Source of the DNA: Alphaproteobacteria bacterium
GTDB lineage: Bacteria; Pseudomonadota; Alphaproteobacteria; CAAHEQ01; UBA3637
DNA length: 42,827 nucleotides
Assembly (NCBI GenBank): GCA_045605805.1
Contig: JAZUQR010000012.1
Coordinates: 1-42,827 of the forward strand
Direction of reading: 5' to 3'
This document shows, piece after piece, positions 13,776 through 30,140 of the stretch. The notes under the pieces were generated by a model. It worked only from the letters and a program-made list of their open reading frames with translations, searched no databases and had not been told where the DNA came from. Made by a program: the position numbers and the translations under genes. Numbering within the stretch: the first letter of the stretch is position 1; each line of letters starts with the position of its first letter.

Positions 13776-14114
13776 ATGGATATTGGTGGAAATCAGTATT
13801 TGCATTTGCAGATGCTTGATGAATCAACAGAAAATACCATAGCGGAAGATGTACTTGAATGGAAAAGGGTGCATTCCTTATGGGGATTTCTTGATTTAAT
13901 GAGCGGTGATGCAAAGTACAATTACAACGCAAAAATTCAGGAATCAACACACATCTTCATAGCGGACTATGAGCCGTTGCCGGAAGGCTTGACAGCGGAA
14001 AATTGCAGGGCTATGGATGAAAATGGCCTTATATATGAAGTAACCTTGATGGATGATCCAATGAATCTGCATGAACAGTGGGAAATCTTCTTGAAATACA
14101 CAGGGGGGCAATAA
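13776..14114 (+). CDS. Head closure protein
   Basis: Position; WG.LD, ESTHIFIADY, YEVTLMDDPM. Confidence 0.75.
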   Translation: MDIGGNQYLHLQMLDESTENTIAEDVLEWKRVHSLWGFLDLMSGDAKYNYNAKIQESTHIFIADYEPLPEGLTAENCRAMDENGLIYEVTLMDDPMNLHEQWEIFLKYTGGQ

Positions 14115-14115
14115 T

Positions 14116-14613
14116 ATGGCGGTGGAGTTTACAGACAATAGCATGAAAGTAAAGGAAGCCTTAAATGATGCCGTTATTGCCTTTCTGTATGAAGCAGGTG
14201 GAGAACTGGAAGCACAGACCAAGCGGAACAGCAGACCTGTAAAGTATGGTCGGCATGATGTTAAAAATTCATGGAAATATACCGTGGATGAAGATGAAAA
14301 AGAAGCAAAAGTCGGAAGTGAATTGGAAGCATCCTATTGGGAAGAGTTAGGCACCGGGGAACACGCATTGAATAAGGATGGTCGTAAAGGTTGGTGGGTG
14401 TATGTGGAAGGCAATGATACACCACGGAGCAATCAGAAGTATTACACAGAAGAGGAAGCCAAGAGTGTGGCTGCATCCCTTAGAAGTAAGGGGTTGGATG
14501 CACACGCAACAAACGGAACGGAAGCCAACAGGCCATTGTTCAGGGCATTTAGTTCATTAAAAGCCGGGATAATAAGAAGGGCAGCGGAAACCATAGGGGC
14601 GAGGATGGAATAA
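14116..14613 (+). CDS. HK97 gp10-like neck protein
   Basis: VEFTDNS, SWKY.VDE, VGS....WEELGTG, RPLFRAF. Confidence 0.8.
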   Translation: MAVEFTDNSMKVKEALNDAVIAFLYEAGGELEAQTKRNSRPVKYGRHDVKNSWKYTVDEDEKEAKVGSELEASYWEELGTGEHALNKDGRKGWWVYVEGNDTPRSNQKYYTEEEAKSVAASLRSKGLDAHATNGTEANRPLFRAFSSLKAGIIRRAAETIGARME

Positions 14614-14987
14614 TGGAAATCGTAACATTGAATTATCTTTCCAAAGTGATGAAAGAAGAATTGAAACTCAACTACCGCTTCAAGCGGTGGAAAACAAAAC
14701 CTGCATATCCTTATTACACAGGAAGTTATGTGGAAAAATCACCATTGAATGAAGATGGATTGCAGGAATCCACTTTCATTTTGGAAGGGCATAACAGAGG
14801 TTCTTCTATTGTTTTAGAGGAAGATAAGAAAAAGATAAAAGAATATTTTAAAGATGGAAAAACAGCCAAGATGGAAGATGGAACCGTTGTGGCTGTTTTT
14901 TATTCTGATTCTTCCCCGGTAGATACTGTGGATGCGGAATTGGACAAGATACAAATAAATTTAGATGTAAAGGAGTGGAGTAAATGA
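14613..14987 (+). CDS. Tail terminator protein
   Basis: Position before the major tail protein; PAYPYYTGSY, KIQINLDVKEW. Confidence 0.7.
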   Translation: MEIVTLNYLSKVMKEELKLNYRFKRWKTKPAYPYYTGSYVEKSPLNEDGLQESTFILEGHNRGSSIVLEEDKKKIKEYFKDGKTAKMEDGTVVAVFYSDSSPVDTVDAELDKIQINLDVKEWSK

Positions 14988-15739
14988 GAAAATCAGGTAT
15001 TACAAAATCAACACCGAATGATTTTTTGCTGAATGCCGGAGTGGTATTCAAGAATTTTAAGTGGGTGTGGAGCCTTGCCACCGAAGATTCAGAAGGAAAC
15101 TATCCGGATGGTTCTATTGAGATTGTGGCAGACGGTACCAAAGAAACAGAATCCACGATTCAGTTAAAGAAGGTTGCAAGCCCCGGTGTATCATTCATTG
15201 GATTGGCAGCCGATTACACAGCACCTAAAGTAGGTGATCATATCATTGGTGCATGGGATGATTCAGACGAAAATGTTCTTGGTGCAACATCCGGGGGCAA
15301 TAAGCTTTCTATTTTGTCCGAATTAACACCTATTGAAGTGGATGGTGCTTTGGTTAAGGTTAAAGGCTTAACACAGAAAACAGGCGAAACAGGAAGCCTG
15401 GAAACAAATCTTGCACAGCATACGAAGGAATCCTTCATTCGTGCGATTATCGGTAAAGAAGTGGAATCTCTTATTAAGGGATATACACAGCTTACCACCA
15501 AATCATTGATTGAAGCATCCGACTATTTGGACAACATTGCTTTTGTAGGCACCATGTCAGATGGTACGGAATGCATTGTCATTATGGAAAATGCCCTTTG
15601 TACTTCCGGGCTTGAATTGGAGCCTAAGAACAAAGAAACAGCGGTATTGAAAGCAACATTTGAGTGCAACGCAGACTTTGATGATGCACACGATACCTTG
15701 CCTATCTATATTTTTGTACCCAACAAAGAAGCAGCATAA
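14984..15739 (+). CDS. Major tail (tube) protein
   Basis: LLNAGVVFKN, LGATSGG, IEVDG, ENALCTSG; single copy. Confidence 0.85.
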   Translation: MRKSGITKSTPNDFLLNAGVVFKNFKWVWSLATEDSEGNYPDGSIEIVADGTKETESTIQLKKVASPGVSFIGLAADYTAPKVGDHIIGAWDDSDENVLGATSGGNKLSILSELTPIEVDGALVKVKGLTQKTGETGSLETNLAQHTKESFIRAIIGKEVESLIKGYTQLTTKSLIEASDYLDNIAFVGTMSDGTECIVIMENALCTSGLELEPKNKETAVLKATFECNADFDDAHDTLPIYIFVPNKEAA

Positions 15740-15756
15740 GAAGGAGAAGATAACCC

Positions 15757-16272
15757 ATGGATAATAATGCGATTATGGCCAATACAGTTAAAGAAGGCGA
15801 AGTTTTATTGAGCCAGGAAGAGATTGTGCGATTAGCAAACACAGTGGCACCGGAAAAGGCATCCGTTGAAAGACCTTATACATTAAGGAAATTGAAGGAT
15901 GCAGACTTGTTTCCGTTGCTGCAGCTTTTAAGAAAGCTTGGATTTAAAGAAATGAAAGAAACCTTTAACGAGTATAAAGGAAAGTTTAAATTCAATAAAA
16001 ATGATTATGCAACCGAGGAAGAAGCACAGAAGGCTTTGAAGGAAATGAAGGAATCCGCAGGGGTGGATATTGTATTTGAGATGGCAGACTTTATGATTTC
16101 CAAACTTGGAACGCATAGTGATGCAATCTATGATTTCTTTTCTACCTTGGCAGGTGTTCCGGCTGATACCATCAAACAGATGGAATTTGGTACATTACCG
16201 CTTATGATCTATGATACATTCGGTGAGGTAAAGAATACGGCTTTTTTCAAGGTGCTTACCAAATCGCTTTAG
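15757..16272 (+). CDS. Tail assembly chaperone (gpG-like)
   Basis: Between tail tube and TMP; ends ...AFFK at a slippery site. Confidence 0.75.
   Translation: MDNNAIMANTVKEGEVLLSQEEIVRLANTVAPEKASVERPYTLRKLKDADLFPLLQLLRKLGFKEMKETFNEYKGKFKFNKNDYATEEEAQKALKEMKESAGVDIVFEMADFMISKLGTHSDAIYDFFSTLAGVPADTIKQMEFGTLPLMIYDTFGEVKNTAFFKVLTKSL
16242..16248 (+). promoter_or_regulatory. -1 programmed frameshift slippery heptamer T TTT TTC
   Basis: The -1 frame from this site is open (FQGAYQIALVGEM) into ORF 16272-16604, as in lambda G/GT. Confidence 0.75.
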
Positions 16273-16604
16273 TGGGTGAAATGGAGTTCATGGACTTGCT
16301 ATTTTCGAGATATGCAAGTCCTATGGACTTCATGAAGCTTTACATTGACCAGGGGCGGTTTGGTGAATTTGTTTCCGGGATTCTTACAATGGATGATAAA
16401 CGGAAGCAAGAAGAAAAAGAAAAAGAAGATGATAACAAATTGTGGTTTGCTTACCTTATGAGTATGTCAGATAAGAACTTTGAAGCATGGAAGAAAGATT
16501 TGACAAAAACGAAGGCGCCGGAATCATACGCAATGACGGATGAACAGGTGGAAGCAGCCAAGCAAAAAGCGAAGGGAATTATGAAGAAGATTTCCCCGAC
16601 ATAA
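16272..16604 (+). CDS. Tail assembly chaperone C-terminal part (gpT-like)
   Basis: MDLLFSRYASP; reached by the -1 frameshift. Confidence 0.7.
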   Translation: MGEMEFMDLLFSRYASPMDFMKLYIDQGRFGEFVSGILTMDDKRKQEEKEKEDDNKLWFAYLMSMSDKNFEAWKKDLTKTKAPESYAMTDEQVEAAKQKAKGIMKKISPT

Positions 16605-16611
16605 AAGGTGA

Positions 16612-18621
16612 ATGCTTATGGAATTGTTCAAATTGCTTGGAACGATAGCAATAGACAATACAGAAGCAAACAACGCATTGGATAATACATCTGCAAAGGC
16701 AAACGAATCTGCAAGCGAAACGGAATCCGCTTTCAGTAAGATTGGCGGTGTGGCCAAAAAGGTGGCCATTGGAATAGGCACGGCAGGACTTGCCATAGGC
16801 GGTGCTTTTATCGGTGCGGTAGAAAGTACACGAGAGTATAGGGCAGAAATGGCATTGCTTGAATCTGCCTTTTTAACAGCCGGGCATAGTTCGGCAGAAG
16901 CAAAAAGAACATATTCAGAATTAAATGCGGTACTTGGTGATTCCGGGCAAGCGGTGGAAGCATCACAGCATCTTGCAAAGATTGCCGACAACGAAAAGGA
17001 ACTTGCAGGACTAACCGACATTCTAACCGGGGTATATGCCACATTTGGGGAATCTCTTCCGTTGGAAGGATTGGCCGAGGGTATCAACCACAGTGCATCC
17101 CTTGGGGAAGTGCAGGGGAGCCTTGCAGATGCTTTGGAATGGTCGGGAATCAGTGCGGAATCATTCAATGATAAGCTTGCGAAGCTAAAGACCGAGGAAG
17201 AACGGCAGGACCTTATTGTTAAGACTTTAAATGACACATACAGTAAGGCATCCGAACAGTATAAGGAAACCAATGCGGATGTAATGGAAGCAAGGAAAGC
17301 ACAGGAAAGATTGTCAGATGCAATGGCAGAGGTAGGCAGAGTTGGGGAACCAATCATGACCGCCATTAAAAATGCGATTGCAGGAATGGCAGAAAGTGCG
17401 GTGCCTGTTATTGAAAATATGGTGAACGGCTTCCGGGATATGATCCAATGGGTAAAGCAGAACCAAGACACCGTGCAATCATGGGTTGGTGTGATTGTAG
17501 GAGCCACAACAGCGGTAGGAATCTTTGTTTTGATTATTTCCTGGGGAAAAATTATGACCGCTGCAGCAAATGCCATTAAGGTGGTAAGAACGGCAATGAT
17601 TGCCTTCAATACGGTATTGCTTGCCAATCCCATAGGGTTGGTTGTTGCAGCCGTTGCCGGGCTTGTTGCAGCCTTTATATACCTATGGAACAACGTGGAA
17701 GGCTTCCGCAAATTTTGGATAAATGCATGGAACCTGATAAAAAAATATGCTTCCGATTCCTGGAAGGCCATCCGGAAATACTTTTCGGATGCATGGTCAT
17801 CCATTAAAAAAACATGGTCCACGGTGGCAGGTTTCTTCCGTGGGATATGGTCCGGCATAAAGTCGGCTTTTTCGGCAACAAAATCTTGGTTTTCCAATTT
17901 ATTCCGAAACGCATGGAACGGTGTGAAATCCGTATGGAATGGGGCAAGAAGCTTCTTTTCCGGCATATGGTCCGGTATAAGGGGTGTGTTTGGTTCCGTT
18001 GGCTCATGGTTTAGAAGCACCTTTCAAAAAGCATGGTCAAATATAAAATCCGTGTTTTCCGGTTGGGGAAGTTTCTTTTCCGGATTGTGGGGCAAGGTGA
18101 AATCCAAATTCGGTTCAATCGGTACATCCATAGGCACAGCTATGGGAAATGCCGTGAAGAATGGAATGAACGGTGCCTTGTCGAAAGTGGAAAGTGCAAT
18201 CAACAAAGGAATAGGCCTTATAAACAGTGCCATACGGCTTGCCAATAAGCTTCCGGGCATCAATGTTGGTACAGTCGGAAAAATAAGCCTTCCAAGGCTT
18301 ATAAAGGGCGGTGTTTTGGAAAAAGGTCAGGTTGGTTTGCTTGAAGGTACCGGAGCGGAAGCCGTGGTGCCGTTGGAAAGGAATCATGCTTGGCTTTCAA
18401 GGCTTGCACAGGACTTAGACGAGATACAAGGTAGCCGGAGAACATACCAAGACGAAGCATTGATGGAAAGATTAAATCAGATAATATTTTTACTTGAAAA
18501 ACTACTTGGAATGAAAATATATCTTGATTCAGGGGCATTGGTGGGTGAATTAACACCTGCTATGGATGCGAGATTGGGAAGGATATATGACCAAGCAAAC
18601 AGAGGATATACAAGGGGCTGA
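16612..18621 (+). CDS. Tape measure protein A
   Basis: 669 aa; ELFKLLGTIAIDN N-terminus, ANPIGLVV, Trp/Phe 11-residue repeats, G.EAVVPLE, C-terminal YLDSGALVGEL. Confidence 0.9.
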   Translation: MLMELFKLLGTIAIDNTEANNALDNTSAKANESASETESAFSKIGGVAKKVAIGIGTAGLAIGGAFIGAVESTREYRAEMALLESAFLTAGHSSAEAKRTYSELNAVLGDSGQAVEASQHLAKIADNEKELAGLTDILTGVYATFGESLPLEGLAEGINHSASLGEVQGSLADALEWSGISAESFNDKLAKLKTEEERQDLIVKTLNDTYSKASEQYKETNADVMEARKAQERLSDAMAEVGRVGEPIMTAIKNAIAGMAESAVPVIENMVNGFRDMIQWVKQNQDTVQSWVGVIVGATTAVGIFVLIISWGKIMTAAANAIKVVRTAMIAFNTVLLANPIGLVVAAVAGLVAAFIYLWNNVEGFRKFWINAWNLIKKYASDSWKAIRKYFSDAWSSIKKTWSTVAGFFRGIWSGIKSAFSATKSWFSNLFRNAWNGVKSVWNGARSFFSGIWSGIRGVFGSVGSWFRSTFQKAWSNIKSVFSGWGSFFSGLWGKVKSKFGSIGTSIGTAMGNAVKNGMNGALSKVESAINKGIGLINSAIRLANKLPGINVGTVGKISLPRLIKGGVLEKGQVGLLEGTGAEAVVPLERNHAWLSRLAQDLDEIQGSRRTYQDEALMERLNQIIFLLEKLLGMKIYLDSGALVGELTPAMDARLGRIYDQANRGYTRG

Positions 18622-18639
18622 TAATTCAGTCCCTTTTTT
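18612..18639 (+). terminator. Intrinsic terminator between TMP-A and TMP-B
   Basis: AAGGGGCTGA-TAAT-TCAGTCCCTT-TTTT. Confidence 0.65.
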
Positions 18640-18671
18640 GAATTTACGAAGGAAAGGGGGTAACCCTTAGA

Positions 18672-20915
18672 ATGGATATTTTTAGGCTATTTGGAACAAT
18701 AGCAATCGACAATACATCCGCAAACAATGCGATCAATGAAACATCCGACACGGCAGAGCGAGCGGAAAGCAAATTGTCTATTGCATTTCAAAAAATAGGT
18801 TCCGCAGCAATAGCGGTAGGGCAGGTAATGGCCACAGGGCTTGCGGTAGGTATCACGGCAATGGCAGCACTTACCGGGCAAGCATTGAATCTTACCGGGG
18901 AATTGGAACAGAATATGGGCGGTTCCGAAGCGGTCTTTGCTGAATACGCAGAACGAATGCAGGATATAGCTGGGGAAGCCTATGCAAATATGGGCTTGTC
19001 TGCTTCTGATTTCCTTGCAACGGCAAATAAAATGGGAGCCTTATTCCAAGGTGCCGGATTTGGCATTGAGGAATCGGCAACTATCTCCGCAGATGCAATG
19101 CAAAGGGCAGCGGATGTGGCATCAATCATGGGTATTGATGTATCAGTTGCCATGGAATCTATTGCAGGAGCAGCAAAAGGCAATTTCACCATGATGGACA
19201 ATCTTGGTGTGGCAATCAATGATACCACCTTGCAAATCTATGCAATGGAACATGGCCTTGGCGAATTGGTAACCACAGAAGATAAAGTCAGTGCAGCCAT
19301 GCAGATGTTCATGGAAAGCACGGCATATGCAGCAGGGAACTATGCAAGGGAAAATCAGACCTTGGCAGGGTCTTTGACAACGGCAAAGGCAGCATTACAA
19401 AACTTCCTTACCGGGGTAACAAGTGCAGACCAATTTGCGGATGCACTTACCAATGCAGGGGATGTAATCATTGACAATCTTGTGGAATTGGTTCCCCGAC
19501 TTATTGAAGGTTTGACAGAATTGATGGAAATTCTTATGCCGGAACTTCCTGGGATATTAGAATCCGTTTTGCCCGGAATTATTGATGGTGCTTTTCTACT
19601 AATTGAAGGATTGGCAACCATTTTGCCGGATTTATTAAGCATTCTTGGTGGGATAATCAGTGAACGATTACCGGATTTGTTGCAATTATTTGCGAATGCA
19701 TTAAGTATGCTTGGTGGAATAATTAGCGAAAGTTTGCCTGATTTATTGCAAATTGGGTTGGATATTCTTTTACAGATTGTGCAAGGCATGGCAAACGCAT
19801 TGCCCGAAGCATTACCAACTATTGTGAATGTTGTGTTGCAGCTTATAGACATAATCATTCAAAATATTCCGTTGTTTATTTCGGCAGCGGCACAGTTGAT
19901 ACAGGGATTGTTGCAGGGATTGATAAGTGCAATGCCTATGATTTTGGAATATCTTCCAATTATGTTGGAGAGTATCACATCCGCTTTGATAGAATCATTG
20001 CCATTGCTGATTGAATGCGTTGTATCCCTTATAACATTTATCGGTGAGGAATTACCCACAATTATTGACATAATTGTCCAAATTTTGCCGGATTTGATGG
20101 ATTTATTGGTTGATGGATTTATTGCATTGCTACCTGTTTGGATTGAAGGCTTGATTGCATTTATTACGGCAATCGCAGAGCAACTTCCCGATATATGCGT
20201 GGCATTGTTCGAAGCACTTCCCCAAATTGTGGATTCAATTTTGCAGGGATTGGTGGTGTTGGGTTCACGGCTTAGGACAGAAATTCTTGATCCAATGGTG
20301 AATCGGTTTGTAATTTGGTTGAATACCATCAAAAACAGAATATTCGGTGCGGTGAATGTTGCAAAGAATTATATTGTAAATGGATTTGAAACAGCAAAAG
20401 AAGCCCTTGCGGAAATTGCCGAAGGAATCAAATCGAAGTTCACGGATGCATTCAATTCCTTGGTGGATATAGTGCGTTCACCGCTTAATTCAATTATTGG
20501 ATTTGTCAATCAGGTGATTGATGCCCTTAACTCTATAAGCATTGATATTCCCGATTGGGTGCCGGAGTATGGCGGTCAAACCTTCGGTATTAACATTCCG
20601 AACATTTCCTATCTTGCCAAGGGTGGTGTAATTACGGAACCTGCACTTCTTGGGTACAATCCATTGTCCGGAAGGGGAGTGGTTGCAGGAGAAGCAGGGG
20701 ATGAAGCTATTGCACCGATTGGAGTTTTACAGGCTTATATTGAAGAAGCGGTGGCACGGCAAAACTATGCACTTGTGGCGGTTTTGGAAAGAATCCTGGA
20801 AGCCATCATTGCTTTGGATGCGAACATGGGCGGTAATTTAAGTGAAGCATTGGAAGGCTTAACATTTTCGGCAGATAAAAGGGAATTTGCCCGGTTAGTA
20901 AAGGCGGTGAACTGA
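18672..20915 (+). CDS. Tape measure protein B
   Basis: 747 aa; DIFRLFGTIAIDN N-terminus, AKGNFTMMDNL, Leu/Ile/Pro 11-residue repeats, LAKGG, AGEAGDEAIAP, C-terminal REFARLV. Confidence 0.9.
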   Translation: MDIFRLFGTIAIDNTSANNAINETSDTAERAESKLSIAFQKIGSAAIAVGQVMATGLAVGITAMAALTGQALNLTGELEQNMGGSEAVFAEYAERMQDIAGEAYANMGLSASDFLATANKMGALFQGAGFGIEESATISADAMQRAADVASIMGIDVSVAMESIAGAAKGNFTMMDNLGVAINDTTLQIYAMEHGLGELVTTEDKVSAAMQMFMESTAYAAGNYARENQTLAGSLTTAKAALQNFLTGVTSADQFADALTNAGDVIIDNLVELVPRLIEGLTELMEILMPELPGILESVLPGIIDGAFLLIEGLATILPDLLSILGGIISERLPDLLQLFANALSMLGGIISESLPDLLQIGLDILLQIVQGMANALPEALPTIVNVVLQLIDIIIQNIPLFISAAAQLIQGLLQGLISAMPMILEYLPIMLESITSALIESLPLLIECVVSLITFIGEELPTIIDIIVQILPDLMDLLVDGFIALLPVWIEGLIAFITAIAEQLPDICVALFEALPQIVDSILQGLVVLGSRLRTEILDPMVNRFVIWLNTIKNRIFGAVNVAKNYIVNGFETAKEALAEIAEGIKSKFTDAFNSLVDIVRSPLNSIIGFVNQVIDALNSISIDIPDWVPEYGGQTFGINIPNISYLAKGGVITEPALLGYNPLSGRGVVAGEAGDEAIAPIGVLQAYIEEAVARQNYALVAVLERILEAIIALDANMGGNLSEALEGLTFSADKREFARLVKAVN

Positions 20916-20916
20916 T

Positions 20917-21738
20917 ATGATGGAAAGAATTAAATATATCAATCATAGAAATGAAGTGCTTGATTTCGGGGCAAATGGCCTATATATCAATGAGAATGAT
21001 TTGCGTGATTTTGTATGGTCTATTATTTCAAAGAATAACCGTATCACAGGATTCAAGAAAGGGGTGGTTTCAAGGACCATCCCTGTTATTATTTCCACCA
21101 CATCCGAAGCGGAATGTACGGCAAAGTTAAATGCATTATATGAGATATGCGAAAAGGATGTTCTTGCGGTGCAGCATGGAAGGTTTGTGATTGGTGACTA
21201 CTATTTGAAGTGCTTTGTTACCACTTCAAAGAAGAAGGACTACTTGACAAGCCGACAATACAAGTCAATTCAACTTAAAATATCAACCGATATGGCATAT
21301 TGGGTAAAAGAAACGGTCACAACCTTTGGATATGGAGCAGGAAAGAAAGGTTCTAATCTTGATTATAACAATGATTTCCCATACGACTACACATCCAACA
21401 TTATGAATCAATCACTGAATAACACAGGCTTTGTCCCGGTGAATTTCAGGATGAACATATATGGACCATGCACCAATCCAAAAGTAACCATAGGCGGTCA
21501 TGAATATGAAGTATTTGCAGAATTTGAAGCCAATGAGTATTTGGCCATTGATTCTATCAGTAAAAAAATAACCTTAACGCATACGGATGGAAGCACGGAA
21601 AATTGCTTCAACCTTAGGAATAAAGATTCATACATCTTTGAAAAAATCCCGGTGGGAGTGAATACGGTATCATCCAGTGCGGAATTTAAGTTTGATGTTA
21701 CCCTTTTCGAGGAAAGGGGGGAACCTAAGTGGACTTGA
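20917..21738 (+). CDS. Distal tail protein (Dit) B
   Basis: Directly after TMP-B; WVKE, DYNNDFPYDY, IYGPCTNP, FEKIPVG.N, EERGEPKW. Confidence 0.8.
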   Translation: MMERIKYINHRNEVLDFGANGLYINENDLRDFVWSIISKNNRITGFKKGVVSRTIPVIISTTSEAECTAKLNALYEICEKDVLAVQHGRFVIGDYYLKCFVTTSKKKDYLTSRQYKSIQLKISTDMAYWVKETVTTFGYGAGKKGSNLDYNNDFPYDYTSNIMNQSLNNTGFVPVNFRMNIYGPCTNPKVTIGGHEYEVFAEFEANEYLAIDSISKKITLTHTDGSTENCFNLRNKDSYIFEKIPVGVNTVSSSAEFKFDVTLFEERGEPKWT

Positions 21739-23162
21739 TCTATATGAACCGGAGCCGGGAAGATGAAGGGGTGCTTGCGGATTTTACCTTTGATTTGGCT
21801 TTTGGTAAAGATGAAAATAACTTTGAATGCGTGGTTGACACAGAAAGCCATTGTTGTGAAGAAGGGTATTTCCTGTATTACGAAGGCACAGAATACGGTG
21901 GAATCATTGATAAAATTAAGGTGGCCACGGAAAAGTCGGAAATAACCTATATCGGCAGAACATGGCATGGGTTGTTGGAATCCAAGGTGATTGAACCATT
22001 GAAGGCCACGGATGAAAGCGGTGGCGGTGCGACAGTGCATAAAGGTGGGAAAAACCTTATTCCTTATCCGTATTACAATAAATCTATGACTTCAAAAGGT
22101 ATTGAATGGGTGGTAAATGGAGACGGAACAGTGACCGCTAATGGAACAGCAACGGCCACTTCTATATTCTTTTGTACTTTTAGAACAGAGAATCTAAAAC
22201 AAGGCAAATATATATTAAGCGGTTGTCCTAACAGTGGGAGCAGACAAACATATTATCAATGGTTTGGAATATGGGATGGAACAAGTAATGTATATGGTGC
22301 TTATGACATCGGAAGTGGTGCAAATATAACTGTAAAAAGTGAACACGAAAAACATTATGTAGTAATTGGGTGCTATGTATATGCAGGTGCAACCGTTGAA
22401 AATCTTACATTTTATCCGCAATTAGAAGTAGGCGAAAAGGCCACATCATATCAACCATATAAAAGCCTTGAAAAAGAATATCTTATGTTATCAGGGGAAG
22501 CAAACAGTGTGATTGGTTGGTTGGTTGAAAGAATGGGGCTTGGGGCTATGTTTACGGCTTCCACGGAAGATTCTGGCATTGACATTTCCAATTACAAAAT
22601 GAACCGTTATATAGGCGGTTATGAAGGCATACGGAAGATGCTTAAAGATGCAGGGGCAAAATTGCATATAGAGTTTAAAGAAGGCTTTGCGGAACTATCT
22701 GCAAGGCCTTTGGTTGATTACTCAAAGGATGAAGAATTTGATACAGACCAAATTGATTTTGAGATTGAAAAGAATTTCCATCCTATCAACCATGTAATAT
22801 GCCTGGGAGCCGGGAATCTATCAGAACGTGAAGTGATTCATGTATATGCGGATGCATCCGGGAACATAAGCACAACGCAGAGTATTTTCGGCATTGATGA
22901 AGTGACCGCAAAATATGACAATCCAAACGCAGAATCAAGTGAAGCCCTTAGGCAGGGTGGAATTGATTTAATAAAGGCATCATGGAATGCCGACAAGGTG
23001 GATTTTGATTTCAATTCAAATGAAAAAACCTATGATATAGGGGATGTGGTAGGGGCAAGGGAATTTGTCACCGGAATATCCGCATCTTCTGAAATCGTGA
23101 AAAAGATTGTCAAAATAAAGGACAATACAACAACAATATCATATGAGGTAGGTGAAGTATAA
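21729..23162 (+). CDS. Tail hub/Tal-like protein B (ReqiPepy6 gp37-like) with inserted carbohydrate-binding-like domain
   Basis: DLAFG..ENNFE, GTEYGGII, GRTWHG, NHVICLG.G, YDIGDVV; insert GKNL...YPQLEVGEKATSYQPY. Confidence 0.75.
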   Translation: MDLIYMNRSREDEGVLADFTFDLAFGKDENNFECVVDTESHCCEEGYFLYYEGTEYGGIIDKIKVATEKSEITYIGRTWHGLLESKVIEPLKATDESGGGATVHKGGKNLIPYPYYNKSMTSKGIEWVVNGDGTVTANGTATATSIFFCTFRTENLKQGKYILSGCPNSGSRQTYYQWFGIWDGTSNVYGAYDIGSGANITVKSEHEKHYVVIGCYVYAGATVENLTFYPQLEVGEKATSYQPYKSLEKEYLMLSGEANSVIGWLVERMGLGAMFTASTEDSGIDISNYKMNRYIGGYEGIRKMLKDAGAKLHIEFKEGFAELSARPLVDYSKDEEFDTDQIDFEIEKNFHPINHVICLGAGNLSEREVIHVYADASGNISTTQSIFGIDEVTAKYDNPNAESSEALRQGGIDLIKASWNADKVDFDFNSNEKTYDIGDVVGAREFVTGISASSEIVKKIVKIKDNTTTISYEVGEV

Positions 23163-23866
23163 TGCATTTAGTAACAGGGTACGCAGGAGAAGAACACATT
23201 CAATCAAAAGACCAAGGTTCCTTCAATGCTGCATTTTTTGGTGCGGATCAGTTCGTGATGGAATCGGGCAATCAATTTGAAGCATCTATATTGAACAACA
23301 ATACGGTGCGAGTTTTAGACGGTGACGGTCTTATGTACGGAAGGCATTTCCTCATTGAACCGAATACCTATGAGGATGTAACCATCACCACAGGTACAGC
23401 CGGGGTGAATCGTATTGATTTAATCGTGGTAAGGTATGAAAAGAACCAAAATGATGGAACGGAAAAAACCTATTTGGAAGTAATTAAGGGAACGGAAAAG
23501 GAATCCGGAGCCGTAGCACCTGCATATACAGATGGAAATATTCTTGAAGGTGCCACCATGAATCAGATGCCATTGTATCAGGTGGCTATCAATGGGGTGG
23601 TGTTGGAAAGTGTGACACCGCTTTTCAAAACAAAACCTTCCTATCAGGAATTGGCGAGAATGTATGAAGCAGAATTTAAAAAGGCTTGCGAAACACATTT
23701 GGATTCTTTGAATGTTTTGGACACCATGGAAGAAGTGGGAGCCAACACACAGGCAAAACAACTTGCCGGAGCATTGGCGGTGAAGGAACTTGCAATGGGC
23801 TTGGGTACAGTTGAATTTCGGGTGAACAATGGACAGTTGCAATATAGATACGAAAGCGAGGAATAA
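23162..23866 (+). CDS. Baseplate/fibre anchor protein B
   Basis: MHLVTGYAG..HI, NNTVRVLDG, RIDLIVVRY, MPLYQV. Confidence 0.7.
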   Translation: MHLVTGYAGEEHIQSKDQGSFNAAFFGADQFVMESGNQFEASILNNNTVRVLDGDGLMYGRHFLIEPNTYEDVTITTGTAGVNRIDLIVVRYEKNQNDGTEKTYLEVIKGTEKESGAVAPAYTDGNILEGATMNQMPLYQVAINGVVLESVTPLFKTKPSYQELARMYEAEFKKACETHLDSLNVLDTMEEVGANTQAKQLAGALAVKELAMGLGTVEFRVNNGQLQYRYESEE

Positions 23867-23869
23867 GGC

Positions 23870-24298
23870 ATGGGAACAATGACAGAATGGCAGGATGTTG
23901 GAATGAATAGCGAAGAAAAGGCACAGTTGCAAGCGATTTATGACAAGGTTGTTATATCAGGAGAAACAATCCCGACAGTAATAACTTCTGGGAATGGGTG
24001 GACAGAAGGTGTAACAAGCGGAACATATACATTTGAAGAAAATATAAAATATGGGTTGATAGTGTGCCATTGCGAATGTTCAAAGTCCACTAACAAACCG
24101 AATTTTGGGGCAACAATCGACAATGAGTTCATTTCTTTGATTAACCAAGTATATCATCCAGGTTCTTCAAATTATGGAATCGCATGTGTTGATATTAAAA
24201 CATACGAAATCAAAGATATACCGCAAGGGGCCATATTAAATTGGACAGTGAGTGATTCGGCAAATGCCAAAGACATTGTACTTTTTAAAATAAATTAA
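23870..24298 (+). CDS. Putative receptor-binding/variable domain protein of module B
   Basis: Beta-rich, AT-rich ORF in frame with the upstream gene. Confidence 0.5.
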   Translation: MGTMTEWQDVGMNSEEKAQLQAIYDKVVISGETIPTVITSGNGWTEGVTSGTYTFEENIKYGLIVCHCECSKSTNKPNFGATIDNEFISLINQVYHPGSSNYGIACVDIKTYEIKDIPQGAILNWTVSDSANAKDIVLFKIN

Positions 24299-24348
24299 AA
24301 ATACAATAACAACTTTCAAATTATAAAAAAAATAAGTGGGTGGTAATT

Positions 24349-24561
24349 ATGCTTAGAGTACAATTCAATGATTCCCTTTCCATGCAGGCGGTGGATTTCA
24401 AAACCATTTCTGATTCCGTTGTGCAATTAACCGGGGAGAAAGTCCCGGAGAACACATCCGGATTCAAAGTGTACCGTCTGAATGGTGAATTTTTGGGAGA
24501 TTATTCAGACTACAAAAAAATAGTGGCAGAGGTAAAGAACGGCTTCCAGTTCGGGAAGTAA
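24349..24561 (+). CDS. Small tail-associated protein
   Basis: NTSGFKVY...LGDYSDYK motif at the end of module B. Confidence 0.55.
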   Translation: MLRVQFNDSLSMQAVDFKTISDSVVQLTGEKVPENTSGFKVYRLNGEFLGDYSDYKKIVAEVKNGFQFGK

Positions 24562-24604
24562 TACAAAAGATAACCTTGCAAATGGCAAAGAAAGTGAGGT
24601 TATC

Positions 24605-25243
24605 ATGAAAGGCATACAGTTTGGCAAATATCATTCTTGGAATGATTTTGCACTGATATTAACATCAAAGGAAATCGGAACACCATCTATCAAAACGGAA
24701 ACCATTGATATACCGGGCGGTGATGGTGTTCTTGATTTAACGGAATTTTTTGGTGATGTAAAGTACAGCAACAGGCCGTTATCTTTTGAGTTTTCCACCA
24801 TAGTTCCGCAAAGTGAATTTATGAATCTTTTTTCGAGGGTACAGGATGCCTTGCATGGTCGCAAAGTGGAAATAACCTTGGATGAAGATGCACAGTGGTA
24901 TTATATCGGCAGATTGGAAATATCACCTTGGAAAGCAGAGAAAAGCATTGGAAAATTCACGATTGATTGTGATTGCGAGCCGTACAAGGTAAAGAAAAAT
25001 GATACCATTGTCACAGTAAATGTGGCAGAGGAAACCACGGTTATTTTGCACAATAGCAGAAAAGCGGTGGTGCCTACCATTGATATAACCGGGGAAATCA
25101 ATTTGACCTATGGGGTCAATTATTACACCTTATCCGCAGGGCGGTATGACCTTCCGGGGGTTCAGTTGGTAGAAGGGGATAATACCATTCTATTAAACGG
25201 AGCAGGAACGGCAACCTTCACATATCGTGAAAGGGGGCTTTAG
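24605..25243 (+). CDS. Distal tail protein (Dit) A
   Basis: MKGIQFGKYHSWNDF, IDIPGGDGVLDLTE, YYIGR, CDCEPYK, final YRERGL. Confidence 0.85.
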   Translation: MKGIQFGKYHSWNDFALILTSKEIGTPSIKTETIDIPGGDGVLDLTEFFGDVKYSNRPLSFEFSTIVPQSEFMNLFSRVQDALHGRKVEITLDEDAQWYYIGRLEISPWKAEKSIGKFTIDCDCEPYKVKKNDTIVTVNVAEETTVILHNSRKAVVPTIDITGEINLTYGVNYYTLSAGRYDLPGVQLVEGDNTILLNGAGTATFTYRERGL

Positions 25244-25244
25244 G

Positions 25245-26831
25245 ATGTACCAGGTATATTGCGATTCATGGCTTCTTTATAATGACCAAATGGAAGATTA
25301 TAAGATTGTCAATCCTAAGGTGGAATTGGAATTGAATCAACTTGGGAAATTTGATTTTTCCATATATAACAACCATCCGAATTTTGATAAATTAAAACGG
25401 CTTAAATCTATCATCCAAGTATTTCAGGATGATTTTTTATTGTTCCGGGGAAGAATCTTGGATGATGAACAGGGATTCTATAACGAAAAACAGGTGATGT
25501 GCGAAGGGGAACTTGCCTTTTTGGTCGATTCCATCCAAAGGCCTTATGATTTCAACGGAAGCCCGGCAGAATTGTTTGTTTTCTTTATAAACAACCACAA
25601 TGCACAGGTGGATGCAGACCATCAATTCAAAGTGGGAAATATTACGGTCACGGATCCAAACGATTATATAGCCCGGAGCGATTCCGAATACCTGAATACC
25701 TGGGAATCTATCAATAAGAAACTGATAGAAACCCATGGGGGATATATTTGGGTACGGCATGAAGCGGATGGTGTGTATATAGACTATTTGGCAGAATTGA
25801 ATCTATTATCACCGCAGAAGATAGAGTTCGGGAAAAACCTTTTGGATTTGAAAAGAGCCACCAAAGGACAGGATATTGCAACGGCTATCATCCCTTTGGG
25901 AGCCAAGGAAGGGGAATCCCGGATTGATATAACATCTGTGAATAACGGTGTTGATTATGTGTATAACCAAGAAGCGGTTGATACATACGGATGGATATAT
26001 CAGAAACAGATATGGGATGATGTAACGGAGCCGGGGAACCTATTGACCAAGGGCAATGCATATCTAATGGAAAAGATAAAGATGCTTTATTCCATAGAAT
26101 TGGATGCAGCGGATATGGCCACGGTGGATAAGACGGTGGAATCCTTCCATCTTGGAACACAAGTGCAGGTTACCACGAATCCGCATTCCATAGACCGTTT
26201 GTTTTTGGTATCGAAGCTTTCCATATTATTATTGCAACCTGCATCCAATAGGCTAACCTTAGGGGATGCTTACTACACCATGACAGAACAAACGGTGAAG
26301 GGGCAAATAGCCACGGAAAACAAGTTGGTGGGTATTTCTTCGGATTTACAAGAAAGGCTTCAAAATGGGCTTACAGAAACGGAAACAAAGCTATCTGCAC
26401 AGATACTTGCCACATCCGAGAGCATCACGGCAACGGTTATGGAAGAAGTGTATTTGAAAGATGATGTGGATGCCTTGGTTTCTTCCGTGAATACGCAAAT
26501 ATCACAGACCGCAGAAGATGTGGAAATAAGGTTTAATGAGTTTTCGCAAGATATAGATGCGGTTGCAGCCGGAGCAGATGCACAGTTTGAGGAAATAAGC
26601 AAATATATCCGGTTTGTGGATGGCAACATCATCCTGGGGGAAGAAGGAAACACACTTACCCTTAGAATTGAGAATGACCGCATTTCCTTTTTGGATAGCG
26701 GATTGGAAGTGGCATACCTAAGCAATTCCAAGCTTTATGTCACGGATGGGGAATTTTTGCATTCCTTGCAATTAGGGAATTTTGCATTTATCCCAAGAAC
26801 CAACGGAAATTTATCCTTTAAAAAATTATAG
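25245..26831 (+). CDS. Tail hub/Tal protein A (prophage endopeptidase tail-like) with coiled-coil extension
   Basis: LFRGR, CEGELAFLVDS, IEFGKNLLD, TAIIPLGA, YIRFVDGNIILG. Confidence 0.85.
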   Translation: MYQVYCDSWLLYNDQMEDYKIVNPKVELELNQLGKFDFSIYNNHPNFDKLKRLKSIIQVFQDDFLLFRGRILDDEQGFYNEKQVMCEGELAFLVDSIQRPYDFNGSPAELFVFFINNHNAQVDADHQFKVGNITVTDPNDYIARSDSEYLNTWESINKKLIETHGGYIWVRHEADGVYIDYLAELNLLSPQKIEFGKNLLDLKRATKGQDIATAIIPLGAKEGESRIDITSVNNGVDYVYNQEAVDTYGWIYQKQIWDDVTEPGNLLTKGNAYLMEKIKMLYSIELDAADMATVDKTVESFHLGTQVQVTTNPHSIDRLFLVSKLSILLLQPASNRLTLGDAYYTMTEQTVKGQIATENKLVGISSDLQERLQNGLTETETKLSAQILATSESITATVMEEVYLKDDVDALVSSVNTQISQTAEDVEIRFNEFSQDIDAVAAGADAQFEEISKYIRFVDGNIILGEEGNTLTLRIENDRISFLDSGLEVAYLSNSKLYVTDGEFLHSLQLGNFAFIPRTNGNLSFKKL

Positions 26832-26843
26832 TAGGGGGCATAT

Positions 26844-28868
26844 ATGGCAACATCAAGTGCAATGTCAACTACAAATGATAAAATCAAATATAAAATTACG
26901 ATAACACAGAATAGTCAAAGCATAGCCAACAATACATCCAATGTCACGGTATCGGTTAGGGTATATCGTACCAATACCGGATATACCACATACGGCACAG
27001 GAACGGTGTATTGCACGATAAACGGCACACAGTACACGGAAGCAATCACATCTTCGGATAAGATTACCAATTCCGGAATAGTGCTTTTTTCAAAAACCCT
27101 GAACATATCACATAGTGCGGATGGTTCAAAAACCTTGGCCACATCTGCAAGAATAACGCATGATCAGTTTTCTTCCAGTAGTCAAAGTTATTCGCAGACA
27201 TTGACCACGATTCCAAGGGCAACCACACCTACATTGTCGGCATCATCCGTCAATATGGGGGCATCCATCACTATCAATATGCCAAGGGCATCAAGCAGCT
27301 TTGACCATACCTTGACATATAAATTCGGAAGTGCTACCGGAACCATAGGAAGTGACCTAGGAACATCAAAGGCATGGACAGTGCCTTTATCCTTGGCAAG
27401 TCAGATTCCAAGCGGAACATCCGGCACCTGCACGATTACTTGCAAGACTTATAACGGAAGTACACTGATAGGCACCAAGACGGTTTCTTTTACCGCCAAG
27501 GTGCCTTCTTCCGCTGTGCCTACCTTTGGAAGCGTTGCGGTGGCAGATACCAATTCGGCATATGCAACACAATTTGGAAGTTTGGTGCAAGGGAAATCCA
27601 AGGCAAAATTCACAATTACGGCTTCCGGGGCTTACGGTTCCACCATAAAGACTTACAAAACAGTAATTGAAGGAAAGACATACACCGGAGCATCCCCGAC
27701 AACAGCGGTATTGACCGGAAGTGGCAATGTATCGGCTTCTATAACGGTAACGGATAGCAGGGGAAGAACGGCAACTACAACAAAGACTTTCTATCTGATT
27801 CCTTATAATGCACCAAGTATCACGGTATTTGAAGCGGTAAGGACAGATGCGGAAGGGTTGGAAAACTATGAAGGCATGAATGCAAAGGTGTCTGTGAATT
27901 TTAGCCTTGCAACGGCAAGCAGCAAGAACACATCATCATACAAGATAGAATACAAGAAGCAATCTGCAAGCACATGGGAAGAGATACAAAATGGTACAGG
28001 GTATTCATTGAACACAAGCATCATCACAGATGCGGTGTTTGACGGAAATTCCGCTTATGATGTTCGGTTGACCGTTACAGATTATTTTGGAAGCATAGCA
28101 AGGACAACAGCCCTTCCAACGGCCTTCACATTGATTGATTATCATTCATCCGGAAGGGGAATGGCATTTGGTAAGGTATCAGAAAAAGAAGGGCTTGAAA
28201 TTGCCCTTCCGACATTCTTTTCAAATGCAGAAACACCTTCTTCAATGAAATATCTGCAAGGTGGCGAAGATTTCAACAATATTCTTGAACCGGGATTCTA
28301 TGCAATCCCGACAACAGCCATTTCCGGCACTTTATTAAATAAGCCATGGGAAGGCACCGCAACAGGAAGCCTGATTGTATTAAGGGAAGGAAACGGACTT
28401 CAAAAGATGCAGATAGCCCATAGAGGTTCCAAGGATGATGGTGCTATATATGAACGAAGCTACTATCAGAATGCGTGGGGAGATTGGCACACCGTACATG
28501 ACGGAAAAGGAAAGATTCTATGGTCCGGTGGTTATTTCATGACCGCAGGACATATTATTTCTTTTTCGGAACCTGCAAGCAAACAGCCTTCCGGGATTGT
28601 GCTTGTATTTTCGGAATACTATGATGCAGAATCAAAAAATCAATCATTTTCAAGCCATTTCGTACACAAAAGATTGATAGAATCCCATTCAGGGTCAGGG
28701 CATAATTTCATAATGTCAACAAGCAATATGGCATATATGGCCACAAAGTATTTGTATATCCGGGATGATGGAATCACCGGGCATAACAATAATTCACTCA
28801 CCTTGACAGGAAGCGGTGTAACACTAAACAATAACAGGTTTGTGTTGCGATATGTTTTAGGTGTGTAG
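26844..28868 (+). CDS. Tail fibre/receptor-binding protein A (siphovirus DUF859-like)
   Basis: QSIANNTSNV, LTTIPRAT, VTDSRGR, GMAFGKVSE, DFNNILEPGFY knob, LRYVLGV. Confidence 0.8.
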   Translation: MATSSAMSTTNDKIKYKITITQNSQSIANNTSNVTVSVRVYRTNTGYTTYGTGTVYCTINGTQYTEAITSSDKITNSGIVLFSKTLNISHSADGSKTLATSARITHDQFSSSSQSYSQTLTTIPRATTPTLSASSVNMGASITINMPRASSSFDHTLTYKFGSATGTIGSDLGTSKAWTVPLSLASQIPSGTSGTCTITCKTYNGSTLIGTKTVSFTAKVPSSAVPTFGSVAVADTNSAYATQFGSLVQGKSKAKFTITASGAYGSTIKTYKTVIEGKTYTGASPTTAVLTGSGNVSASITVTDSRGRTATTTKTFYLIPYNAPSITVFEAVRTDAEGLENYEGMNAKVSVNFSLATASSKNTSSYKIEYKKQSASTWEEIQNGTGYSLNTSIITDAVFDGNSAYDVRLTVTDYFGSIARTTALPTAFTLIDYHSSGRGMAFGKVSEKEGLEIALPTFFSNAETPSSMKYLQGGEDFNNILEPGFYAIPTTAISGTLLNKPWEGTATGSLIVLREGNGLQKMQIAHRGSKDDGAIYERSYYQNAWGDWHTVHDGKGKILWSGGYFMTAGHIISFSEPASKQPSGIVLVFSEYYDAESKNQSFSSHFVHKRLIESHSGSGHNFIMSTSNMAYMATKYLYIRDDGITGHNNNSLTLTGSGVTLNNNRFVLRYVLGV

Positions 28869-28897
28869 ATAAAAAACAAAAGAAAGGAGCAATCATC

Positions 28898-29146
28898 ATG
28901 GAAACAATCATATCTGCAGCGGTCACAGGGGGGCTTGCACTTATAGGGGTAATAATTACATCTATTGCAAGCAACCGTAAAATCGAAAACAAATTAACCA
29001 CGGCACAGGCGGTCACAGAGATTAAAATTGATGAATTGACAAGGGAAGTCCGGGAGCATAACAATTTTGCCCGAAGGATGCCTGTGGTGGAAGAACAGAT
29101 AAAGGTTATCAATCACCGCATTGATGATTTGGAAAAAGCACAGTGA
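28898..29146 (+). CDS. Small membrane protein (holin/XhlA-like)
   Basis: N-terminal TM helix, LTREVREHNNFARRMPVVEEQIKVINHRIDDLE; at the usual lysis position. Confidence 0.7.
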   Translation: METIISAAVTGGLALIGVIITSIASNRKIENKLTTAQAVTEIKIDELTREVREHNNFARRMPVVEEQIKVINHRIDDLEKAQ

Positions 29147-29147
29147 T

Positions 29148-29180
29148 AAAGGGAAGGTTTATACCTTCCCTTCTTTTTTT
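29148..29180 (+). terminator. Late operon terminator
   Basis: AAGGGAAGGT-TTAT-ACCTTCCCTT-CTTTTTTT. Confidence 0.8.
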
Positions 29181-29213
29181 ATGTAATAATAAGAAGAAAA
29201 AGGATGATGCAGG

Positions 29214-29330
29214 ATGGAAATGTACCTATATAATATGGCGGTGGAATCCATCAATAAGTATAAGGAAGAAGAATTGACGGATTTTGATACATTCATGGAT
29301 GAAATGGAAAAGGAATACGAATCATATTGA
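29214..29330 (+). CDS. Small acidic ORF (38 aa)
   Basis: Hand-translated MEMYLYNMAVESINKYKEEELTDFDTFMDEMEKEYESY; weak RBS. Confidence 0.35.
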   Translation: MEMYLYNMAVESINKYKEEELTDFDTFMDEMEKEYESY

Positions 29331-29386
29331 CATTTTTTGTAATATTTGCAAATATTATTTCATTATAATATATGGGGGTGATTCTC

Positions 29387-29761
29387 ATGTTTTTCTTCAA
29401 AAAGAAAAAAACAAAAGAAATAGTTGCAGAAAAGAGAACCAATTTTGCCGGGGAAAGTATGGACCACTTAGATGCAGAAGAAAATCTGCCTTTTGGATGG
29501 GTGGTGCATAATCAAAAATATGTGGATATGATTGAAAATGATTTGCAACCATTCCGGCAAGCAATATGGGATGCGAAAACAGATGTGCAGAAATATGGTG
29601 CCTTTAAATCATATTTTCTTTTTTTAGAGGATGGGAAAAAACACTATGCGGAAATGAATCCATGCGTGGGGAAATATTTTGAAGAATATATATGCGATTC
29701 TTGCGAAGCGGAAGAATGGAAAAAAGAATTTCAGAAGATAGAAAGAAAAGGGCAGGAATAA
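29387..29761 (+). CDS. Moron protein of unknown function
   Basis: GGGGGTG RBS, AT-rich upstream region with TTGACA and TATAAT hexamers, downstream terminator. Confidence 0.65.
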   Translation: MFFFKKKKTKEIVAEKRTNFAGESMDHLDAEENLPFGWVVHNQKYVDMIENDLQPFRQAIWDAKTDVQKYGAFKSYFLFLEDGKKHYAEMNPCVGKYFEEYICDSCEAEEWKKEFQKIERKGQE

Positions 29762-29774
29762 AACCTGCCCTTTC
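29747..29774. terminator. Bidirectional terminator
   Basis: AAAGGGCAGG-AATAAAA-CCTGCCCTTT between convergent genes. Confidence 0.7.
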
Positions 29775-29777
29775 ATA

Positions 29778-30140
29778 TTATTTATGTTTATTCAAGTAGA
29801 AATATAATCGTGAAATGAATTGCGAATTGGAAGGCGCACCTTTCATTGGGTTGATACTGAATTTGAATAATTCATCAATGAAGGCCATATTTCCATAGAG
29901 CCAAGCCACATGAATTGCGTGCCGGATTGCCCTTTCAACTCTTGCAACACTTGTATGGTGTTTGTTGGCTATATCCGCATATAGTCCGGTTATTTTGTAC
30001 AACTCCGTTGGATCATGCAGAACAAATTCTTCTGCACTTGTGAGATACACAAAGCCGACAAGATTTGTTGGTACACCGATTTGCAAAAGCAAATCCTGAA
30101 TTTCTTCTTCGTAGATTTCAAGCGGTACTTCATCTTTCAT
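29778..30140 (-). CDS. Spo0A C-terminal (DNA-binding) domain protein lacking the receiver domain
   Basis: IGVP.NL.GF.YL, LYADIA..H.TS..RVERAIRHAI..AW, PSNSQFI. Confidence 0.9.
   Translation of the reverse strand: MKDEVPLEIYEEEIQDLLLQIGVPTNLVGFVYLTSAEEFVLHDPTELYKITGLYADIANKHHTSVARVERAIRHAIHVAWLYGNMAFIDELFKFSINPMKGAPSNSQFISRLYFYLNKHK

Follow-up and report, generated by a model that had tools for sequence, protein, structure and literature searches.

The question raised by this locus is whether a single siphophage genome can encode two different tails. The window, by which we mean the whole 42.8-kb stretch of DNA analysed, is the entire contig C12 of a 31-contig, 1.21-Mb assembly. The contig ends share a 28-bp terminal direct repeat, so the contig was assembled as a circle, and to judge from its genes it is a circular temperate siphophage. 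In siphophages the tail tube grows on a complex of a tape measure protein (TMP) trimer, a distal tail protein (Dit) hexamer, and a Tal trimer, and Tal closes one end of the tube. Positions 16612–28868 of the window hold two TMP genes, two Dit genes, and two Tal genes. Because Tal closes one tube end, two tip-specific TMPs, two Dits, and two Tals would be expected to make two kinds of tail from a shared tube, chaperone pair, and neck. In our judgement the balance tips somewhat toward this reading, in which two orthogonal tail-initiation complexes would work on one assembly line and one burst would yield two virion morphs with different receptor-binding tips.

All ten open reading frames (ORFs) of this region lie on the + strand, are intact, and are closely packed, in the order TMP-A, TMP-B, Dit-B, Tal-B, receptor-binding protein (RBP), two small genes, Dit-A, Tal-A, and DUF859 fibre. 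The ORF positions and the tight nested layout described for 16612–28868 in an earlier note on this DNA were exact. TMP-A (669 aa, 16612–18621) directly follows the tube gene and a chaperone pair (15757–16604). It matches phrog_58 (9.4e-50) among 36 PHROG matches, mostly to TMP families, and tblastn aligns it with annotated TMPs of cultured phages; it has the N-terminus typical of the lineage and an A-type C-terminal motif. It is not directly followed by a Dit or Tal of its own, as Dit-A starts 5,984 nt downstream. The inner cassette, module B, begins with TMP-B (747 aa, 18672–20915; phrog_991, 9.1e-32, among 21 PHROG matches), which combines a TMP-A-like N-terminal motif with a B1-type C-terminal motif. 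Dit-B, of B1 type (273 aa, 20917–21738; phrog_33 'distal tail protein Dit', 3.8e-17), starts 2 nt past the TMP-B stop codon and is followed by Tal-B (477 aa, 21729–23162; phrog_538 'minor tail protein', 1.1e-39) and RBP-B (234 aa, 23162–23866). Two small ORFs, of 142 aa (23870–24298) and 73 aa (24340–24561), complete the cassette; neither has a PHROG or Pfam match, and the smaller one is seen again in several B1 cassettes. The outer set then resumes with Dit-A (212 aa, 24605–25243; phrog_33, 9.4e-23), which is 46–97% identical across the lineage, Tal-A (534 aa, 25227–26831; phrog_3558 'tail protein', 4e-124; PF06605, 60.1 bits, cutoff 31.3), and fibre-A (674 aa, 26844–28868; PF05895 DUF859, 208.5 bits, cutoff 28.8), whose C-terminal half is variable. 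The other eight of the ten proteins, both Dits included, had no Pfam match, and for Tal-B there was none at E ≤ 0.01.

In pairwise BLASTP comparisons TMP-A and TMP-B could be aligned only over their first ~62 residues (50% identity, E 5e-12), and neither the two Dits nor the two Tals showed similarity to each other (best E 5.6). The earlier note had called the two sets non-homologous. For the Dits and Tals this holds as far as pairwise alignment goes, but not at the level of families and folds: both Dits match phrog_33, and Tal-B folds as a Tal or hub, as described below.

A layout of this kind in a metagenome-assembled contig might be an artefact or a relic, that is, a chimera, a split TMP, or a dying duplicate, and two relatives do contain a broken gene (in L060, Tal-A is split into two ORFs of 285 and 245 aa; in L070, a TMP-A-like ORF ends after 246 aa). 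We give this explanation almost no credence, since the same layout was found in two diverged contigs and in dozens of loci from other samples. The second contig, C16 of the same assembly, is a related circular phage of 45,220 bp with a 140-bp terminal repeat. It is 70–78% identical to the window in portal, capsid, TMP-A, Tal-A, and fibre-A and has an identical nested order; its inner Dit and Tal are paralogues of its outer ones (34% and 43% identity). IMG/VR was scanned with Tal-A (19 loci) and with TMP-A (38 loci), and the two locus sets share contigs. In the Tal-A scan, 16 of the 19 loci contained TMP-A, TMP-B, an inner cassette, and Dit-A/Tal-A/fibre-A; the other three were cut by contig ends, with cassette genes still preceding Dit-A, and in none of the 19 was Dit-A next to a TMP. 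In the TMP-A scan, a second TMP lay directly downstream in all 27 evaluable loci, the remaining 11 of the 38 being cut inside TMP-A. The layout was also present in a contig of an Acutalibacteraceae metagenome-assembled genome (MAG; L025) and in the unannotated GenBank virome record MT835521 (L035), whose Tal-A is 53% identical.

Independent public metagenome contigs are 90–99% alike to the window; one, from an independent run, bridges the junction at 18554–18880, and contigs from two runs cover 24561–24691. No metagenome contig lay over 23806–24322, in sequencing runs whose matches had shares of at most 0.33 and short contigs. An RNA-library run has contigs on TMP-A and TMP-B, which is not a sign of transcription. 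On TMP profiles, the matches of TMP-A and TMP-B cover the same regions rather than complementary halves. An assembly chimera and a split TMP were rejected on this evidence; the layout is genuine, as had been claimed, and relatives do keep both modules.

The two sets were also compared for selection, using dN/dS by the NG86 method; several dS values were above 1 and thus saturated. The ratio was below 1 in 30 of 30 gene-pair comparisons over both sets (about 0.05–0.50). Between the window and its closest relative, L006, it was 0.046 for TMP-A, 0.11 for Dit-A, 0.049 for Tal-A, and 0.49 for fibre-A; the corresponding values for the inner set were 0.23 for TMP-B, 0.11 for Dit-B, 0.50 for Tal-B, and 0.18 for RBP-B. 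By this measure, which the earlier note had proposed for each module, every gene compared lies below 1 and both tip sets are under purifying selection. Together with the intact ORFs, this speaks against a dying duplicate.

To assign each TMP to a tip, we used the C-terminal end of the protein. BLAST clustering of the C-terminal 130 residues was too mosaic and was replaced by inspection of the last ~40 residues and a motif tally, for which TMPs were made non-redundant by their last 130 aa and the C-terminal motif was called by regular expression or by eye. All TMP-As end in motif A, ...LDSGALVGELAPxxDxRLG...RG. The same motif is found at the end of the TMP of two single-tip phages, Javan422 and NatCom_24097, where an A-type Dit/Tal comes directly after it, and at the end of the TMP-Bs whose cassette is of the A-like 'B2' type. 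Motif B1, ...NREFARLVKAVN, ends the TMP-Bs that precede a B1-type Dit as well as the sole TMPs of PMBT6, phiCs5676-1, L030, and L032, and motif B3, ...VVPDENGIFRVVRDKARE..., ends the TMPs that precede a 'B3' cassette. Motif A was found in all 30 TMPs followed by another TMP (27 by regular expression, 3 by eye) and in 8 of 8 followed by an A-type or B2 Dit (5 and 3); motif B1 was found in 19 of 19 followed by a B1 Dit (18 and 1), and motif B3 in 6 of 6 followed by a B3 small gene (6 and 0). There was no exception to the association of motif and tip across these four classes; two odd cassettes have other endings. Because the last ~35 TMP residues track tip type, we conclude that TMP-A belongs to the distant Dit-A/Tal-A and TMP-B to the adjoining cassette. 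The pairing of TMP-A with Dit-A/Tal-A, previously an inference, is now backed by co-variation of the motif. Co-folding of Tal-A residues 1–380 with TMP-A residues 595–669, in one copy each because the trimer was too large, gave a score of 0.00, which carries no weight either way.

The opposite end of the TMPs behaves differently. The N-terminus MELFKLLGTIAIDN... is common to both TMPs in every genome of the lineage and almost invariant, and both TMPs keep it though the remainder is less than 30% identical. Single-tip relatives whose tube protein is of the same family have it as well, and it is absent from PMBT6, phiCs5676-1, Javan422, and NatCom_24097. A comparison of similarity within and between genomes was dropped because the motif is near-invariant everywhere. 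Having a shared N-terminus and a tip-specific C-terminus, the TMPs are chimeras: the head-proximal end is specific to the backbone and the distal end to the tip. Judging by the title of one paper (PMC11661146), the TMP N-terminus reportedly meets the tail completion protein at the neck.

The inner slot was found to hold at least four architectures. In B1 cassettes the Dit is about 275 aa long, the Tal is about 320 aa long and may contain inserts, and the RBP has a conserved shoulder. B2 cassettes have paralogues of the outer Dit and Tal, B3 cassettes have a 125-aa phrog_1194 protein and a tail protein of 553–1044 aa, and B4 is the cassette of MT835521. Backbones whose TMP-As are at least 75% identical hold different types (B1 in the window, B2 in C16, B3 in L024). 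These results confirm the earlier description of module B as a nested cassette and show that it is exchangeable among backbones of the lineage.

Both tip types are also used on their own. The best 80 out of 288 loci carrying a B1 Dit were classified. Two TMPs were present in 28 of these 80, a further 8 could be recognised as dual from an A tip downstream, and 23 could not be assigned; the outer set was of the A type in every dual case. The other 21 contain one TMP (571–1131 aa), preceded by at least 2.2 kb of visible sequence, and show no A tip; in 13 of these 21, that absence extends over 5 kb or more of downstream sequence. Two B1-only loci, L085 and L088, encode major tail proteins 47% and 38% identical to that of the window and have the same TMP N-terminal motif. 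The B1 tip stands alone in Bifidobacterium phage PMBT6 and Clostridium phage phiCs5676-1, whose sole Dit is a homologue of Dit-B, and the A tip stands alone in Streptococcus phage Javan422 and Blautia phage NatCom_24097. These four phages are like the window in having homologous Dit/Tal/RBP proteins and the same TMP C-terminal motif for each tip type; unlike the window, they have one TMP (920–1146 aa), one tip, and other TMP N-termini, and Javan422 has no match to the window's tube protein. Stand-alone use is asymmetric: B1 tips are alone in 21 loci, and the A tip was never found alone in the lineage backbone (0/27).

Both TMPs and both Dit/Tal sets could instead be built into a single composite tail, arranged in series or combined in a compound baseplate. 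The lack of a lone A tip in this backbone and the presence of both sets' genes in one operon would agree with such a structure, which we nevertheless hold to be very improbable. Both TMPs begin with a full start motif and end in a C-terminus specific to their own tip, and the inner set varies over four architectures whereas the outer set is fixed. Since a Tal trimer plugs the end of the tube in solved tips, a separate tube end is needed for each of two Tals. TMP length sets tail length, at ~0.15 nm per residue. In 25 non-redundant genomes TMP-A was 531–692 aa long (median 665) and TMP-B 552–962 aa (median 704), and the two lengths, which differ by 1–297 aa, were uncorrelated (n = 25, rho 0.17, p 0.41), which argues against a shared bundle in one tube.

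The module B proteins were then assigned by fold comparison, because phmmer searches with the two Tals and the two Dits found nothing above chance level among PDB sequences (all E ≥ 0.016). Tal-B was modelled with AlphaFold 2 (AF2) from an alignment of 12 relatives (mean predicted local distance difference test score, pLDDT, 64.6). The model matched the Bxb1 tip with a VIA Z of 12.3 (root-mean-square deviation 4.4, 236 residues aligned) and other hubs with Z of 11.2 (Mu-gp44-like), 10.1 (monocin), 9.9 (80alpha Tal), 9.7 (Listeria gp18), and 9.3 (p2 ORF16). The hub alignment runs along the length of the protein, and on this model Tal-B is a Tal, or gp27-like tail hub. Within it, residues ~106–237 (nt ~22044–22439) of the model score Z 7–8 to carbohydrate-binding modules (CBMs); this CBM-like insert is missing from the Tal-B of most relatives (~320 aa). 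One metagenome contig has 21998–22574, in the region of the insert, swapped for 106 other letters.

For RBP-B, the AF2 model had a pLDDT of about 90 over residues 30–160 and below 50 in the C-terminal head. Residues 30–160 matched the RBPs of p2 and 1358 and SPP1 gp22 in Foldseek; for the p2 and 1358 RBPs the Foldseek probability was 1.0, yet with E of 7e-4 to 2e-2 and TM of 0.3–0.4. Among relatives the N-terminal shoulder domain is conserved and the C-terminus is variable, with a C-terminal length of 183 to 539 aa. The label 'baseplate-B' that the earlier note gave to 23162–23866 is replaced accordingly by that of a putative RBP with a lactococcal-p2-like shoulder domain. With the predicted hub fold of Tal-B and the shoulder-like RBP-B, module B appears to be a complete p2-like tip, consisting of TMP, Dit, Tal, RBP, and two small ORFs.

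A TMP, a Dit, a Tal, and an RBP suffice for the tip of an F-type tailocin, and module B might therefore give head-less tailocin-like particles or decoys from the shared tube, with only A tails joining heads. A monocin is indeed among the fold matches of Tal-B, and the cassette is hypervariable, as killing specificities are. We regard this as quite improbable, because TMP-B keeps the neck-proximal N-terminal motif of TMP-A, the tail completion and neck genes are shared with nothing seen that would stop head joining, and infectious phages such as PMBT6 have no tip other than B1.

The borders of the slot carry conserved elements. An intrinsic-terminator-like hairpin with a T-run overlaps the TMP-A stop codon (18612–18641, + strand; 10-bp stem, −15.6 kcal/mol), and this G+C-rich hairpin followed by a T-run is a predicted rho-independent terminator. 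A hairpin and T-run follow TMP-A at 27 of 28 non-redundant junctions, compared with 9 of 300 random windows from the same loci, and about ten different stem sequences occur across loci. Next to it lies the conserved, strong Shine-Dalgarno (SD) region of TMP-B (18648–18671, + strand). Its sequence, AAGGGGGTGA...CCCTT before the ATG, is near-invariant and, by eye, can form a small 5-bp hairpin across the SD site. At the far border, a conserved hairpin, GATAACC...GGTTATC (24569–24604, + strand), encloses an SD site and ends at the Dit-A start codon; it is present in 17 of 24 non-redundant loci. In these 17 loci, 94.4% of cells were paired, compared with 23–58% when the partner was slid, and two pairs were changed on both sides. 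The terminator after TMP-A and the hairpin before Dit-A suggest regulation that the earlier note had not foreseen. These elements may attenuate or balance expression, and they may also offer conserved anchors for cassette exchange. In MT835521, the spacer between the post-TMP-A terminator and TMP-B is 615 nt long and contains, on the minus strand at 3864–4350, an ORF with a signal-peptide-like start; its features suggest that a moron was inserted there. Another terminator-like hairpin (29149–29172, + strand) lies after the 82-aa ORF that follows fibre-A.

These elements bear on whether the two sets are used together. Both could be functional but used conditionally, with the terminator and the SD-occluding hairpins before TMP-B and Dit-A serving as a switch or rheostat, by antitermination or translational control, so that mainly one tail type would be made per infection. 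The retention of a terminator at nearly all junctions despite differing stems, the compensatory changes in the Dit-A hairpin, and a 50-nt gap with no room for a promoter are in its favour. Even so, conditional use seems unlikely to us. The terminator after TMP-A cannot choose A versus B tips, because Dit-A and Tal-A are encoded beyond module B on the same strand and no terminator separates them from it. Moreover, no regulator was identified.

Two virion morphs are the most economical reading of the locus. Complex A would be composed of TMP-A, Dit-A, Tal-A, and the DUF859 fibre, and complex B of TMP-B, Dit-B, Tal-B with its CBM insert, and the p2-like RBP. The common TMP N-terminus would fit the shared chaperones, tube, and neck, and the last ~35 TMP residues would act as a 'zip code' for one tip type. 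With both sets co-expressed, either complex would serve as the nucleus on which the single tube protein polymerises, and the TMP of that complex would set the length of the tail, at roughly 100 and 112 nm. Both tails would be assembled and heads would join either of them, giving two morphs per burst with different adhesins and, probably, two host ranges. The outer A set would be fixed in the lineage, and the inner B set would be a horizontally exchanged cassette between the terminator after TMP-A and the hairpin before Dit-A, in a slot refilled by recombination with co-circulating phages. We see the chances as evenly balanced that all of this extends to the entire gut-siphophage lineage, which would then be constitutively dimorphic. 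Every burst would contain two virion types with one head, tube, and neck; two orthogonal TMP-Dit-Tal complexes would be kept apart by the ~35-residue zip code; and a fixed tip plus a recombination-refilled slot between terminator and RNA hairpin would amount to whole-tip bet-hedging without DNA rearrangement.

Several observations weigh against two tails. Dit-A and Dit-B have no pairwise similarity, yet both must seat one tube protein. The conserved terminator separates TMP-A from everything downstream, its own Dit-A/Tal-A included, which is odd for simple co-expression. Neither border element is universal: L015 has no post-TMP-A terminator (1 of 28 junctions), and 7 of 24 loci lack the Dit-A hairpin and were left out of the pairing count. 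Both TMPs of B2-type phages, such as C16 (38114–42310, minus strand), carry the same motif type, so the complexes may cross-assemble there. The failure to find an A tip without an inner cassette in this backbone could mean that the sets are interdependent. The broken Tal-A of L060 and TMP-A-like gene of L070 reflect either sequencing error or decay, the confidence of the Tal-B model is middling, and the phage collection holds no cultured host or isolate of the lineage, only the single unannotated virome record MT835521.

Compared with known systems, the component families are ordinary and the arrangement is new. The canonical TMP-Dit-Tal triad of siphophages such as lambda, SPP1, TP901-1, p2, and 80alpha resembles module B in its families, gene order, TMP C-terminus facing Tal, and single tube and chaperone pair. 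Unlike the phages with a canonical triad, the window has two triads, the outer one being split by about 6 kb with the second triad between its TMP and Dit. The phages K1-5, SP6, CBA120, and phi92 have several RBPs, all on one tail. In them, as would be the case in the window, more than one adhesin gene set broadens host range; in contrast to them, the window provides every set with a TMP, Dit, and Tal of its own, an arrangement that implies separate tails. Tandem sets of tip and TMP genes are also found in Pseudomonas, where R-/F-type pyocin or dual tailocin loci are adjacent, each with its own tube or sheath and without a head. They are like the window in placing two complete tip and TMP sets side by side in one lytic programme and in yielding particles that differ in specificity, as those of the window would, and unlike it in that the window shares tube, chaperones, neck, and capsid between sets that are nested.

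The Mu G and P1 C invertible segments and the BPP-1 diversity-generating retroelement (DGR) provide switchable tail fibres. They give alternative host specificities from one genome, as the window would; in the window, however, both sets are co-oriented and constitutively encoded. A Pfam scan of 40 ORFs of the window, smaller ORFs being outside the scan, revealed no reverse transcriptase family. Nor was an invertible segment found: there were only 18–25-nt imperfect inverted repeats and no small invertase, all tail genes are on the + strand, and the sole recombinase of the window is a 573-aa large serine integrase. Having found no reverse transcriptase in these 40 ORFs and no invertible segment, we rejected both a DGR and a Mu/P1-type switch, in agreement with the original claim that neither DNA inversion nor a DGR is involved.

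The full-text literature searched, which did not cover subscription journals, yielded no account of two TMPs accompanied by two tip modules. In the portions retrieved from PMC3556154, PMC8407745, PMC3271669, PMC2147016, and 10.1101/2025.11.26.690771, the phrase was used in an irrelevant sense. If both sets build tails, one genome would give two particle types, a host-range strategy not described in that literature and one that would differ both from several adhesins per particle and from a DNA switch. The lineage would be a natural system in which to ask how a TMP finds its tip and whether one tube protein grows on unrelated Dit rings. For annotation, it offers the rule that the TMP C-terminal motif predicts tip type, and a natural cassette slot with defined borders could guide studies of host range in gut phages. 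It also calls for caution in predicting hosts from viromes, because one genome may have two receptor specificities.

The remainder of the window is an ordinary phage backbone. Its + strand head and tail genes encode small and large terminase subunits, a portal, a Mu-F-like minor head protein, a scaffold, a major capsid protein, and adaptors. These are followed by an HK97 gp10-like neck protein, a candidate for tail completion (14116–14613, + strand; PF04883, 23.7 bits, cutoff 21.4), the major tail (tube) protein (14984–15739, + strand; phrog_885, 7.8e-48), and the tail chaperone pair, which consists of a 171-aa ORF and an abutting 110-aa ORF in a different frame, placed by their pre-TMP position and a phrog_1021 match of the first ORF. 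A profile and ORF survey of the window bore out the claim that head, neck, tube, and chaperone genes are single-copy. The serine integrase and a repressor are encoded on the minus strand, and replication genes come after them.

Tal-A was found in none of 79 other genomes of the assembly's family (E ≤ 1e-30), and the sole further genome that matched it is one Acutalibacteraceae MAG. Because the phage contigs are circular and Tal-A is absent from those 79 genomes, binning with the 1.2-Mb genome is not independent evidence of the host. A megablast search of 14000–30000 against the phage collection gave no match.

A few further genes of the window stand apart from the tail. An Amidase_2 endolysin gene (10357–11115; PF01510, 79.8 bits) is located among the head-morphogenesis genes, with the Mu-F-like protein on one side and the scaffold on the other, and has no counterpart in the sister phage C16; downstream of the fibre gene there are only small ORFs (28898–29761), with no lysin seen. 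The early region (33366–33842 and 34186–35642) encodes a protein with an SLT transglycosylase domain, a radical-SAM protein, and a short C5 DNA-methylase-like ORF. The radical-SAM protein is 88% identical in C16.

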